From Planctomycetota bacterium (lineage in GTDB: Bacteria > Planctomycetota > UBA1135 > UBA2386): a stretch of 64,000 nucleotides of DNA. Made by a program: the position numbers and the translations under genes. Shown here piece by piece: positions 3,386-6,275 of the stretch. Under the pieces are notes generated by a model. That model was not told the origin of the DNA and searched no databases. It saw only the letters and a list, made by a program, of their open reading frames with translations. How positions within the stretch are numbered: the first letter of the stretch is position 1; each line of letters starts with the position of its first letter. The DNA is taken from positions 6,704 through 70,703 of the forward strand of contig JAQCBR010000003.1 of the NCBI GenBank assembly GCA_027621295.1, in the 5' to 3' direction.

Positions 3386-3901
3386 ATGGACCTCTACTCC
3401 TTCATCCGTGACGTCCCCGACTTCCCCAAGCCCGGCATCGTCTTCAAGGACATCACGCCGCTCCTCGGGGATCCGAAGGCCTTCGCCCACGCCATCGACG
3501 AGATGGCGCAGATGATCGAGGCCCACGACGTGCAACGCATCGTCGGCATCGAGTCCCGCGGCTTCCTGTTCGGCGCCCCGATCGCGGTCAAGCTGGGGCT
3601 CGGCTTCACGCCCGTCCGCAAGCCGCGGAAACTGCCGTGGCGGACCCGGTCGGTCGACTACGACCTCGAATACGGGACCGACACGCTCGAGATCCACGAG
3701 GACGGGGTCCAGCACGGCGAGCGGGTCGCGATCCTCGACGACCTGCTGGCGACCGGGGGCACCGCGAAGGCCGCCACCGTGCTGATCCAGGGGCTCGGCG
3801 CGACGATCGCCGGGTGCTTCTTCGCGGTGGAGCTCGGCTTCCTGCCCGGCCGAGAGCGGCTCAAGGACCATTTCGTGGATTCACTGATCCACTACGGCTG
3901 A
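3386..3901 (+). CDS. apt: Adenine phosphoribosyltransferase
   Basis: DFPKPGIVFKDITPLL, GIESRGF, YDLEYGTD and DDLLATGGT (PRPP motif). Confidence 0.97.
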   Translation: MDLYSFIRDVPDFPKPGIVFKDITPLLGDPKAFAHAIDEMAQMIEAHDVQRIVGIESRGFLFGAPIAVKLGLGFTPVRKPRKLPWRTRSVDYDLEYGTDTLEIHEDGVQHGERVAILDDLLATGGTAKAATVLIQGLGATIAGCFFAVELGFLPGRERLKDHFVDSLIHYG

Positions 3902-3996
3902 TCCGGCTCGACCCAGCTCCGACAGGGACTTGCGTCCGTCCCAGAACGAGATCGGGCGACCTTCCCGACCTCTCCGACGGAAATCCGGTTTTGCGC

Positions 3997-4024
3997 TAAA
4001 GTCCGGCGCACTCCGAGACGATTC
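3997..4024 (+). promoter_or_regulatory. Putative sigma-28 (FliA/WhiG/SigD)-type promoter
   Basis: TAAA (3997-4000), 16-nt spacer, GACGATTC (4017-4024), against the consensus TAAA-N15/16-GCCGATAA. Confidence 0.5.
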
Positions 4025-4072
4025 CTGTCTTGCCCCCGGCACCAAAGCCGGCGGTTCTTTCTCCAGCACCTG

Positions 4073-4166
4073 CTTCACGAAACGGCAAACCCGCTGAAAG
4101 GCGGGGACGCAAAGCCACGGGCCTACCGCGACGGAAGTCGCCACGGCAGCCGGTTCCCGAACGAAG
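4073..4166 (+). ncRNA. Cyclic di-GMP-I (GEMM-I) riboswitch aptamer
   Basis: CACGAAAC-GGCAAACCCGCTGAAAGGCGGGGACGCAAAGCCACGGGCCTA...GGCAGCCGGTTCCCGAA matches the GEMM-I core: GGCAAACC, GAAA-loop P2, GGACGCAAAGC, GGCCTA/GGYAGC receptor and CCGA. It lies in the 5' leader of the sigma-28 gene. Confidence 0.9.
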
Positions 4167-4290
4167 GACGCGACCAGAGGTCAACGCGTCGTCGGCCTGA
4201 GGGCCACCCAGGGAACACCAGCTGTCGAGACCGGCCCGAGCCGAGCGTCCGCCAGATCGTGGCGCGCCCCACTCGCCCTCGACTCCCAAC

Positions 4291-5151
4291 ATGGCCCGGA
4301 CCTCTGCTGCCGCCGCTCGTTCTTCCGACCCGATCGTGACCCCGGCCCCTTCGCGCCGCTACGGCTCTCGCGCTGCTGCCCCGAAGGTCAGCGAGCCCGA
4401 GCTCGACGCGATCTGGAAGACCTACAAGAAGACGGGCGACCAGAACCTCCGGAACATCCTGATGGAGGTCCACCTCCCTCTCGTCCGGATGATCGCGGAG
4501 CGCGTGCTGCAGACGCTGCCGAAGTCGATCGAGCTGGACGACCTGATGAGCGCCGGCGTCTTCGGCCTGATGGATGCGATCGACGGCTTCGACCTGAGCC
4601 GTGGCATCAAGTTCAAGACCTACTGCTCGACCCGTATTCGCGGCTCGATCCTCGACGAACTGCGCTCGCAGGACTGGGTGCCGCGCCTCGTGCGCCTCAA
4701 GGCCCACAAGCTCGACCGCGCGACGCGCGAGCTCGAGGGTCAGCTCGGCCGCACCCCGAACCAGTACGAGCTCGCGCAGGCGATGGAGATGTCGCTCGAG
4801 GAGCTCAACGCGACCGTCTCCGAGGCGAGCGCCCGCGCGATGTTCTCGCTGTCCGAGAAGTGGGACGACGGCGAGGACGACAAGGACATGGAGAAGGTCG
4901 AGATCCTCGCCGACCAGAAGTGCGAGGACCCCTTCCAGACCACCCACCAGCGCGACCTCTTCGAGGTCATGACCCGCAGCCTCACGAAGAAGGAGCGGCT
5001 CATCGTGCTGATGTATTACCACGAGGGTCTGACCATGCGGGAGATCGGCGAGATCATGGAGCTCACCGAATCGCGCGTCTGCCAGATCCACAGCAACGTG
5101 GTCGCGCGCCTGAAGGTGCAGCTCGACCAGGCCCAGCTCCAGGTCGGCTGA
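4291..5151 (+). CDS. fliA: FliA/WhiG family RNA polymerase sigma factor (sigma-28)
   Basis: DDLMSAGVFGLMDAIDGFDLSRGIKFKTYCSTRIRGSILDELRSQDWVPR and region 4 LYY..GLTMREIGEIMELTESRVCQIHS. Confidence 0.93.
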   Translation: MARTSAAAARSSDPIVTPAPSRRYGSRAAAPKVSEPELDAIWKTYKKTGDQNLRNILMEVHLPLVRMIAERVLQTLPKSIELDDLMSAGVFGLMDAIDGFDLSRGIKFKTYCSTRIRGSILDELRSQDWVPRLVRLKAHKLDRATRELEGQLGRTPNQYELAQAMEMSLEELNATVSEASARAMFSLSEKWDDGEDDKDMEKVEILADQKCEDPFQTTHQRDLFEVMTRSLTKKERLIVLMYYHEGLTMREIGEIMELTESRVCQIHSNVVARLKVQLDQAQLQVG

Positions 5152-5189
5152 GCCGACTCGGGCCGCGCGCACGAGCGCGATCGCGCCCG

Positions 5190-6275
5190 TCAGTCGCCCG
5201 CACCGAGCCGGCGCACCGGACCGCTGGACCCATCGCCCGACTGGAGAGGGCGGTGGATCGTCACGCTCCGGCCGGCTTCCTGGCCCGCGAAGAACGCGTC
5301 GGTCACCGTGCGCGTGCCCCCACCCCGCATGCGGATGCGCGGGTTGAGCCAACGGTAGTACTCGTCGAGTCGCGGGTCGCCCCTCCACACGAGCGCGGTC
5401 GCGCGGGGATCCGCGGGTCGATCCTGCTCTCGGAGCTTCCGCAGGAAGCCGTGCAGGACACCGTCGTAGAACTGGAGCCGGGGACGCTCCGTCCGGAGCG
5501 CGTTCTCGCGCTTGTGGGCGCGCCACAGCTGCGGCAGCAGCGAGCTCAGGAACGCGTGCACGTACTCGGCCATCTCGAGGTTGGCCTTCGTGCCGTAGAG
5601 GAAGAGCCTCGTGCCCCCCTTCGCCGACTCCGCGTCGTAGTCCTCGGCCCAGATCCCGCGGACGAAGAAGAAGTCCGTGAGCACGCGCGTGAGCGTGTAC
5701 TCCCACGCAGGGTGGCGCTTCCTGATCTCACCGATCCCTCGATGCTGGAACGAGCGCGTTCGGTCTTCCTGGACGATGCCGACGTTGTGCTCGAGCATCA
5801 GCGCCCGCGCCTTGCGCATCGCGGCTGCCGCTTCGTTCTCGTTGGGTGACGAACCCAGCGCCAAGAGCTTCGACACGACACGCGTCAGCCGCGCGGCGGC
5901 GTCATCGGCCGCGGCAGCGACGGCGTCCGGTCCGGAAGCGGTCGCTCGGGCCTCCACGCGGAGGATGCGGCACGCCTTCCGGAAAGCAGGGCCGTGCGGA
6001 GGCTCTCCATGCGCCACGAGGACCTCCTCGGCGAACTGGTGCGCCATCTCGTGGCGCATCGTCGACATCACGTCCTGCCATGCGTCCGTCTGGATGTGCG
6101 CCGCCGAGATCTCGATCAGCCGACGACGGCCGTCCCAGGAGCCGAGTTCCTTCGTCGTGCCTCGCGACAGCGCGATGGAGACCGGCTGCAGCTGGCCACG
6201 GCAGTACTCGTCGTTGTAGTAGCCCCACCACTCGTGGAGGGCGACGAGCCACTCGAGTTCGCGCGCATGCTCCAT
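5190..6275 (-). CDS. SprT-like zinc metalloprotease domain fused to a DUF2786-type domain
   Basis: HEMAHQ (HExxH) followed by PHGPAF, then KLLALGSSPNENEAAAAMRKARALMLEHN (DUF2786-like). Confidence 0.8.
   Translation of the reverse strand: MEHARELEWLVALHEWWGYYNDEYCRGQLQPVSIALSRGTTKELGSWDGRRRLIEISAAHIQTDAWQDVMSTMRHEMAHQFAEEVLVAHGEPPHGPAFRKACRILRVEARATASGPDAVAAAADDAAARLTRVVSKLLALGSSPNENEAAAAMRKARALMLEHNVGIVQEDRTRSFQHRGIGEIRKRHPAWEYTLTRVLTDFFFVRGIWAEDYDAESAKGGTRLFLYGTKANLEMAEYVHAFLSSLLPQLWRAHKRENALRTERPRLQFYDGVLHGFLRKLREQDRPADPRATALVWRGDPRLDEYYRWLNPRIRMRGGGTRTVTDAFFAGQEAGRSVTIHRPLQSGDGSSGPVRRLGAGD

Follow-up and report, generated by a model that had tools for sequence, protein, structure and literature searches.

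A conserved c-di-GMP-I riboswitch aptamer directly ahead of a sigma-28-family gene in a family of Planctomycetota

The DNA described here (the window) is a stretch of 64 kb from contig JAQCBR010000003.1 of a Planctomycetota bacterium (assembly GCA_027621295.1). It contains an aptamer for cyclic di-guanosine monophosphate (c-di-GMP) in cis, directly ahead of a gene for a sigma factor of the FliA/WhiG (sigma-28) family. The sequence supports assignment of this element as a G20-type, that is c-di-GMP-type, class I aptamer, and the survey of related genomes given below supports a strong conservation of the linkage between riboswitch and sigma gene. On balance, and with some reservation, the unit is considered to be a working c-di-GMP-I riboswitch within a sigma-28 leader of approximately 260 nucleotides (nt), in which a promoter of the sigma-28 type would close a regulatory loop, the leader would refold in response to the ligand and the output would lean towards OFF.

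The aptamer and the gene that it leads

When all 64 kb of the window were scanned with 4227 Rfam families, nucleotides 4074–4161 of the forward strand were identified as RF01051 (c-di-GMP-I, also known as GEMM-I). The match covers the full model (positions 1–87 of 87) and scores 75.4 bits against a gathering score of 35, with an E value of 5.6e-13. RF01051 is the sole Rfam family above its gathering score within the window, and it occurs once in the source assembly (4.59 Mb, 279 contigs, 89.7% complete). An initial annotation of the same DNA had described a near-consensus GEMM-I aptamer upstream of ATG 4291 and had named a covariance-model search with RF01051 as the check; the significant full-length match bears the description out. 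The 3' end of the aptamer lies 129 nt before the ATG.

The bases expected to contact the ligand were located through our own mapping of the numbering of the Vibrio cholerae Vc2 aptamer onto the Rfam model. Model position 11, the unpaired G that precedes the paired GC of GGCAAA, corresponds to nt 4084, which is G and represents the equivalent of Vc2 G20. The equivalent of C92 (approximately nt 4157) is C, since the six unpaired nucleotides of the 3' side (consensus gCCgaa) align to CCCGAA at 4156–4161, in which 4156–4158 are all C. Both assignments had been made in the initial annotation and are seen again in the Rfam alignment. The equivalent of A47, a base that intercalates with the ligand, is an A at approximately nt 4111 by alignment to the Rfam consensus. 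The available text of PMC6140456 describes G20 as recognizing one guanine of the ligand (G-alpha) and C92 as pairing with the other (G-beta). The Vc2 riboswitch itself, in the tfoY leader of V. cholerae, belongs to the same aptamer class, has the same G20 and C92, and likewise leads a gene for a regulator, not an enzyme or structural gene; the regulated protein and the phylum are different.

PMC6140456 also reports that a single nucleotide can switch the specificity of GEMM-I RNAs, which allows for the ligand to be 3',3'-cyclic GMP–AMP (3',3'-cGAMP) or another dinucleotide instead of c-di-GMP. The GEMM-Ib RNAs of Geobacter, which sense 3',3'-cGAMP, share the fold and the Rfam clan of the window aptamer but have an A at position 20 according to the portion of PMC6140456 concerned, whereas the window and all 22 aligned orthologs have G, and the GGC triplet at 4084–4086 that includes this base is invariant among them. 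Furthermore, the source genome has seven GGDEF-domain matches and so the organism can make c-di-GMP. A ligand other than c-di-GMP is therefore very improbable.

The two-hairpin architecture of the aptamer, with P1b carrying a GNRA loop and P2, is backed by compensatory changes. Double changes were found in 8 of the 19 predicted pairs among the 22 orthologs and, among 72 distinct sequences, in all 5 of 5 pairs of helices 4 and 7. Of the alignment cells in the aptamer helices 95.1% are paired, compared with 84.8% after shuffling, and the covariation score is 0.291 compared with 0.104; none of 500 shuffles came up to these values, although the alignment was fitted to a model of the same structure and the counts are biased towards it. 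The covariation is located in P1b and distal P2. A strain variant seen in an RNA library, with 4093 G>A accompanied by 4102 C>T, is similarly a compensatory change in P1b. Helix P1 is extended beyond the Rfam model, with a 5' strand GCTTCACG at 4072–4079 and a 3' strand CGAACGAAG at 4158–4166 of the forward strand; in the window 4073–4076 pair with 4163–4166, and 4078–4079 with 4158–4159. The family form of this helix is 5' GCUUCuCG opposite 3' CGAaauGAAGC. After these pairs were added to the alignment of 72 distinct sequences, the two P1 helices were paired in 88.9% and 89.8% and one pair showed six double changes.

The gene that follows (4291–5151, forward strand) encodes a protein of 286 amino acids (aa). 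The open reading frame (ORF) scores 252.4 bits against TIGR02479 (FliA_WhiG; cut-off 189.6), in agreement with the family named in the initial annotation, and Sigma70 regions 2, 3 and 4 are all above their Pfam cut-offs. The cut-off of the narrower WhiG equivalog (NCBIfam NF004935) is missed, at 265.5 bits against 343. ATG 4291 is supported as the start codon because an M-A-(R/K)-(T/S) N-terminus is shared among the relatives.

Conservation of the linkage and its flagellar context

The 40 nearest species genomes and the source genome were searched with the sigma protein and with RF01051. In the window's own family, 22 of the 24 relatives have exactly one RF01051 match, and in each of the 22 the aptamer is on the same strand as, and upstream of, the sigma ortholog, at a distance of 130–430 nt from the aligned portion of that gene (in G019 the sigma gene is divided over two contig ends). 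The two others (G005 and G010, 81% and 69% complete) gave no RF01051 match and no ortholog-level sigma hit either. The link is also found in three genomes from two other families of the order (G030, G037 and G035). In G027, G031, G038, G033 and G040 the riboswitch is sited elsewhere, away from the sigma ortholog, and in eight genomes (G025, G026, G028, G029, G032, G034, G036 and G039) a sigma ortholog occurs with no RF01051 match. One sister family without flagellar genes has multiplied its c-di-GMP-I riboswitches (four matches in G031, two in G038), all unlinked to the sigma ortholog.

In a separate scan of species-representative genomes, the best 80 loci of 385 sigma relatives were searched with a model (R1) built from the 22 Rfam-confirmed aptamers. 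R1 matches are present in 74 of these 80 loci, always upstream on the strand of the gene; a survey of ortholog leaders had been proposed in the initial annotation. Two of the six misses have little or no upstream sequence and four, with at least 800 nt upstream, are truly aptamer-less. On rechecking with Rfam, 15 of 15 R1-positive loci were confirmed and 0 of 5 R1-negative loci matched, and the rechecked leaders contained no other Rfam family. The locus L054, a close relative with a sigma core 83% identical, has kept neither the aptamer nor the sigma-28-type promoter described below; here apt is followed by a short gap and then by a sigma gene whose N-terminus is different and longer. In L053 and L113 the sigma ORF apparently has a long Lys/Ala/Pro-rich N-terminal extension with repeated AAGAAGGC-type codons, as a result of which the distance from the aptamer to the sigma core exceeds 500 nt.

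In most relatives the unit stands within a flagellar setting. Among the 24 family relatives, FlhA was found in 18 and flagellin in 20; of the 18 FlhA-bearing genomes, 14 carry FlhA 5.5–24 kb downstream of the riboswitch–sigma unit on the same contig. The single contig of G011 carries on one strand the riboswitch, the sigma gene, a CheY-like receiver, CheX, a weak FliO-like ORF, FliP, FliQ, FliR, FlhB and FlhA, and after FlhA an SRP54-type GTPase (FlhF-like), a MinD/ParA ATPase (FlhG-like), an ORF of 171 aa and a second FliA/WhiG sigma factor. The order flhA–flhF–flhG–fliA is the classical one for flagellar genes, and it is the fliA position of this order that we take the second sigma factor of G011 to occupy. 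Within 3 kb past the sigma gene, 32 of the 80 loci have a CheY-like gene (at least 56% identity), and CheX follows in 27.

The source genome is different. No match was found in this 89.7% complete assembly to FlhA (PF00771), flagellin (PF00669), the rod/hook N-terminal domain Flg_bb_rod (PF00460) or, at E values up to 0.1, FlgM (PF04316), the search for flagellar genes having been suggested in the initial annotation; FlhF and CheX homologs were not found in it either. Loss of flagella in the source lineage appears the simpler reading because the relatives carry two to nine flagellin-domain matches and dozens of flagellar genes, although an assembly that lacks some 10% of the genome falls short of proving it. 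The family genomes in which neither FlhA nor flagellin was found, namely the source genome (G000), G013, G014, G020 (two contigs, 91% complete) and G021, all have the riboswitch and the sigma gene. The flagellar and FlgM association typical of a sigma-28 factor is thus not seen in the source genome and is seen, by gene context, in its relatives; its absence counts against the label of flagellar FliA and not against membership of the sigma-28 family.

The initial annotation had called the sigma factor orphan and standalone. This description holds for the source genome and a few close lineages, but not for the relatives, in which the unit heads a che/flagellar cluster. Nor is the factor the only one of its type, as the source genome has two further FliA/WhiG-like genes, at C4:5657–6940 on the reverse strand (213 bits) and at approximately C32:5931–6716 on the forward strand (171 bits). 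The C4 paralog is 51% identical to the flhG-adjacent FliA of G011, and its 7.9-kb contig has no recognizable flagellar neighbours.

In the window itself the neighbours are apt and a SprT/DUF2786 gene with no adjoining flagellar or anti-sigma gene, and the domain matches agree with the initial annotation in this respect. The upstream gene (3386–3901, forward strand), which is of contextual interest only and does not belong to the switch, encodes an adenine phosphoribosyltransferase, with several NCBIfam apt equivalogs above their cut-offs; 65 of the 80 related loci likewise have an upstream apt homolog in the same orientation. Downstream, at 5190–6275 on the reverse strand, a single ORF joins SprT-like, DUF2786 and DUF7168 domains identified with Pfam. 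This gene is convergent with the sigma gene and occurs at this place only in the window's subgroup (L043–L045), where it stands in place of the downstream cluster.

A sigma-28-type promoter motif and the putative leader transcript

Alignment of the 170 nt upstream of the aptamers revealed a promoter motif of the sigma-28 type. CTNAA-N16-GCCGAT(C)A(T) is present at five or six of the six scored positions in 73 of 74 regions (73 related loci and the window), with a spacing of 16 in all 73 motif-bearing regions. The -10 block lies 36–77 nt (median 56) before the aptamer model. The window element (3996–4024, forward strand) consists of CTAAA at 3996–4000, a 16-nt spacer and GACGATTC at 4017–4024, ends approximately 48 nt short of the aptamer and resembles the family consensus CTCAA-N16-GCCGATCAT only weakly. 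The family motif agrees with the sigma-28 consensus TAAAGTTT-n11-GCCGATAA, its spacing being within one base of the latter as it is given in the available parts of PMC2859248 and PMC8325347. The motif was not found in the four riboswitch-less loci (at least 800 nt upstream) nor in three riboswitch-less orthologs in the order (760 nt upstream), and so promoter and aptamer travel together. From this motif ahead of its own leader in 73 of 74 regions, the sigma factor is predicted to direct RNA polymerase to promoters of the TAAA-N15-GCCGATAA type.

A separate promoter between the aptamer and the ATG had been raised in the initial annotation as an objection to the link. None is seen there, because a sigma-70 scan of 3850–5350 gave no sites and a sigma-28 matrix derived from the 73 promoter copies gave nothing above 14 bits on the window's contig. 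Applied to the source genome as a whole, with sites not sorted into intergenic and genic, the matrix gave 11 sites above 16 bits and 27 above 14 bits, where a reversed-sequence control gave none and 4, respectively. Downstream of the highest-scoring sites lie ORFs for AI-2E transporter, cyclophilin-domain, DUF4388-TPR-PQQ-PEGA, VWA, NfeD and HEAT-repeat proteins as well as four without a Pfam match. A regulon prediction from these sites was rejected, since the ORFs have no common theme, and no regulon is claimed; the role of master switch for a whole regulon, put forward in the initial annotation, is unproven.

In 14 flagellin upstream regions of four relatives the same matrix gave no hit above 12 bits beside a flagellin gene. 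The pattern CT[ACT][AC]A[GT]-N14-17-CCG..CA occurs in 6 of the 14 against a shuffle mean of 0.06 and, since it was written after inspection of the sequences, is recorded only as noticed. In these six genes (L135–L138; G011, G002, G015 and G037) the form CT[CA]AAG-N14-17-CCGxxCA lies 61–79 nt upstream. It has the same -35 block as the riboswitch promoter and a different -10 block, and may represent a second promoter class for the second sigma-28 paralog.

The leader has a further hairpin ahead of the aptamer and past the promoter-like element, CCGGCACCAAAGCCGG with CGGTTCTTTC after it (4036–4061, forward strand), which is the sole terminator-like match in 3850–5350. A GC-rich hairpin followed by (G/A)TCTTT or (G/A)TTCTTT is found at the same place in most relatives (L042–L121; TTCTTT in the window). 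This element resembles an intrinsic terminator just past the promoter, and it could be a 5' stabilizer, an attenuator or a terminator of apt. In most relatives a second hairpin (UUGGUG...CACCAA) comes after it.

Six RNA-library runs match part of the stretch, and four of these were compared with the window. Two runs of one study yielded contigs 95–99% identical to the window, extending from 4047 to 4715 and from 4047 to 4788, which span aptamer and spacer and continue into the coding sequence; leader and coding sequence are thus on one assembled RNA. The depths of these contigs are 84.5 and 290.9, compared with 9–30 over apt and 8–46 over the SprT gene. In one further contig 4047 is preceded by 21 letters unlike those of the window. 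From runs X17 and X18 came only short contigs (depth 2–6) over parts of the coding sequence, and no weight is put on the gaps. The contigs fit, weakly, a transcript that starts shortly upstream of the aptamer.

Expression platform, sign of control and significance

The spacer between aptamer and ATG is long, 109–381 nt in 72 of the 74 relatives. Directly after P1, at 4167–4190 of the forward strand, lies the hairpin GACGC-GACC-AGA-GGTC-AAC-GCGTC, exactly where the initial annotation had placed it; it is predicted to fold, and with two T in the next 10 nt it indeed has no U-tract. Of 75 leaders, 66 have a hairpin that begins 0–6 nt past P1, with a stability no greater than that of shuffled sequence (mean z -0.21), and at least four T in the following 10 nt are found in 1 of 75. 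The post-P1 hairpin was rejected as an intrinsic terminator on both grounds. No U-tract terminator thus follows the aptamer, as the initial annotation had noted, but the non-standard nature of the expression platform that it proposed is unproven. The 21 nt before the ATG, CACTCGCCCTCGACTCCCAAC, contain neither GGAG nor AGGA, which confirms that there is no clear Shine–Dalgarno sequence in the window.

Two segments of the window leader are candidates for alternative pairing. In the minimum-free-energy fold the 3' strand of the aptamer (4144–4158) pairs over 14 bp with the complementary mid-leader segment GGGAACACCAGCTGTCG (4211–4227, forward strand), a candidate anti-aptamer; the duplex, at -21.4 kcal/mol, is borderline, since shuffles average -16.9 (z -1.84) and 51 in 1000 of them do equally well or better. 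Secondly, CTCGAC (4278–4283, forward strand), which ends 7 nt before the ATG, is complementary to GTCGAG at 4224–4229 and appears in folds as a candidate helix to sequester the ribosome-binding site (RBS); in the window this pairing is at chance (z -0.04).

Spacer motifs are enriched in the 74 related leaders (CTGGAGT 31 observed against 0.6 expected, CTCCAGC 23 against 2.4, GGGAA 43 against 12.5 and CCTTCCC 19 against 2.6), and they make nested long-range helices that cover the Shine–Dalgarno sequence. A Shine–Dalgarno-bearing CUGGAG located 6–10 nt before the AUG is paired with a CUCCAG further upstream in 29 of 75 leaders. Flanking pairing lengthens the helix in these 29 by an average of 2.45 bp, compared with 1.81 bp in controls with swapped partners, and none of 500 such controls reached the observed value. 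The window has neither these motifs nor an anti-Shine–Dalgarno pair. A block CCTTTCGACGC(G/A)TC(A/C)GGAGCCG is central in the nested leader helices (L046, L049, L052, L056, L062, L076, L081, L087 and others); TTCGACG occurs in 17 and GGAGCCG in 20 of the 74 leaders, and the conserved block matches no Rfam family.

In the mechanism that is favoured here, the unit would be transcribed from the sigma-28-type promoter at 3996–4024, and because this promoter is of that type the sigma factor itself or a FliA paralog may drive its leader. Binding of c-di-GMP would lock P1 and P2 of the aptamer, the 3' strand (4144–4158) would be withdrawn from pairing with the mid-leader (4211–4227) and the long GC-rich leader would refold, so that the ligand would gate the amount of sigma factor made. 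As there is no U-tract terminator, the output would be set after initiation, by ribosome access to the start region and/or by Rho-dependent termination. Our conclusion is that the riboswitch would act through refolding of a long structured leader and not through an intrinsic terminator.

Several observations weigh against this reading. In a comparison of apo-like with holo-like truncations the predicted RBS accessibility has means of 0.385 and 0.391 over 72 orthologs, of which 18 lean to one state and 25 to the opposite one (Wilcoxon p 0.53), and in the window it is 0.23 against 0.23; an ON/OFF call from thermodynamics was accordingly rejected. When 12-nt windows along the aptamer were compared with the spacer, complementarity of the aptamer 3' strand was weak across the family, the best mean z being -0.63 with 26% of sequences below -1.5, and the weak signal was confined to the GGUUCCC region. 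Complementarity of the RBS to the spacer has a mean z of -0.52, with 10 of 73 below -1.65 and the window at -0.04. The promoter copy of the window, GACGATTC, is degenerate and the weakest of the 74, at 12.3 bits against a family median of 24, and the hairpin and T-run at 4036–4061 could belong to apt as its terminator rather than to the leader. The RNA contigs come from a single study, fix neither the ends nor the levels of the RNA and may include DNA carry-over, which is not excluded. Finally, the conservation counts are not independent samples, because the genomes are kin and the genome and locus sets overlap (L061, for example, is G011).

The equal RBS accessibility of the two states would fit a purely transcriptional control, with the ligand state deciding whether transcription is stopped by Rho or by a non-canonical terminator at the post-P1 hairpin and the RBS playing no role. 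The long, GC-rich and C-rich spacer, the lack of a Shine–Dalgarno sequence in the window and the abutment of the hairpin on P1 in most leaders would all suit such a mechanism. It is possible but doubtful, as the U-tract is wanting, the hairpin is no more stable than shuffles, the helix covering the Shine–Dalgarno sequence in 29 of 75 leaders has covariation-like support, and RNA contigs bridge leader and coding sequence, a finding with which partial termination is still compatible.

Refolding of the leader, the preferred mechanism, leaves the sign of control to be argued from other evidence. An OFF switch, in which c-di-GMP lowers the output of sigma factor, is somewhat probable, on account of the flagellar context of the relatives together with the geometry of the alternative pairing; the context favours OFF by its likeness to known control of motility by c-di-GMP. 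The modelling itself shows no bias to OFF, and an ON switch, in which c-di-GMP would raise expression from the same unit and the sigma factor would drive a sessile or attachment programme, would also explain why the riboswitch and sigma gene are kept in the five family genomes where no FlhA or flagellin was found. Factors of the sigma-28 family are known to control regulons unrelated to flagella, such as that for type IV pili in Rubrobacter as presented in the available text of PMC8325347. An ON switch is nevertheless rather unlikely. Genes for flagellar export and chemotaxis follow the unit in most relatives, and high c-di-GMP generally represses flagellar genes. Moreover, ligand binding would disrupt the alternative pairing of the window and so free the mid-leader to pair near the start codon, although that pairing is not above chance.

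The weak promoter copy, the lack of a Shine–Dalgarno sequence or anti-Shine–Dalgarno pair and the disappearance of the downstream che/flagellar cluster could also be taken as signs of a relic that is decaying in a flagellum-less genome with no useful regulation left. This is improbable, since the aptamer score of 75.4 bits is mid-range for the family (45–79 bits), the sigma ORF is intact and its protein is 98% identical to the same-genus ortholog and 73% identical to that of G011, the variant strain preserves P1b by a compensatory change, and the unit is covered by RNA contigs at greater depth than its neighbours.

Control of a sigma-28 regulon by c-di-GMP is known from two other systems. In Clostridioides difficile the c-di-GMP-I riboswitch Cd1 precedes the flgB flagellar operon that includes sigD (papers on this subject include PMC6366702 and PMC6200980). 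The flagellated relatives described here similarly have a class I aptamer at the head of a flagellar cluster with a sigma-28 gene, and in both cases one RNA would reach a whole sigma-28 regulon. Cd1 is an OFF switch with an intrinsic terminator, and sigD lies far down its operon. Here, by contrast, the sigma gene is the first after the aptamer, the promoter is of the sigma-28 type, a second fliA closes the cluster of the relatives and no flagellar genes were found in the source genome. A terminator of the Cd1 type was not found, there being no hairpin with a U-tract after the window aptamer and next to none among the 75 leaders, and the window aptamer has no adjacent flagellar genes.

The second system is the RsiG–(c-di-GMP)–WhiG complex of Streptomyces and Rubrobacter, in which, according to the portions available of PMC8325347 and PMC7005675, a sigma-28-family factor is re-used for sporulation and type IV pili in non-flagellated lineages. 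Control of a sigma-28-family factor by c-di-GMP, and re-use of the family without flagella, are features in common. The sensor differs, being an anti-sigma protein armed by c-di-GMP in the Actinomycetota and an RNA in the leader of the sigma gene itself here. In the source genome FlgM was not found, RsiG was not searched for, and the sigma factor falls below the WhiG equivalog cut-off as described above.

The open-access literature of PubMed Central and bioRxiv yielded no planctomycete c-di-GMP riboswitch and none that directly leads a sigma gene, although the supplementary gene-context tables of riboswitch surveys could hold one; the arrangement is apparently not yet described. Taken separately, neither the aptamer class nor the sigma family is out of the ordinary. 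What is unusual is the direct wiring of riboswitch to sigma gene, the presence of a sole class I riboswitch per family genome, the sigma-28-type promoter in front of it and the survival of the unit past an apparent loss of flagella.

For the biology of these organisms, the finding adds to the flagellar-operon riboswitch of C. difficile and the anti-sigma protein of Actinomycetota a sensor placed directly on the sigma gene and conserved in dozens of uncultured planctomycete species. The approximately 75 natural GEMM-I variants with long, terminator-less leaders also provide material for the study of platform mechanism. The layout of sigma-28-type promoter and riboswitch could make a feedback loop gated by the messenger. 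In the flagellated relatives the unit heads a flagellar export and chemotaxis cluster; in the source genome the flagellar genes are apparently lost and the unit alone survives, which implies a regulon beyond flagella and opens to direct test the idea that a motility sigma factor has been re-used. It may even be, though this broader proposal is speculative and more likely to fail than to hold, that the unit forms a self-reinforcing, c-di-GMP-gated cell-fate switch between swimming and attached states across the planctomycete family, kept and rewired to a non-flagellar regulon where flagella were lost, and so an RNA counterpart of RsiG–WhiG. The unit offers a compact, single-input handle on development in the Planctomycetota, a phylum whose regulation is poorly known.

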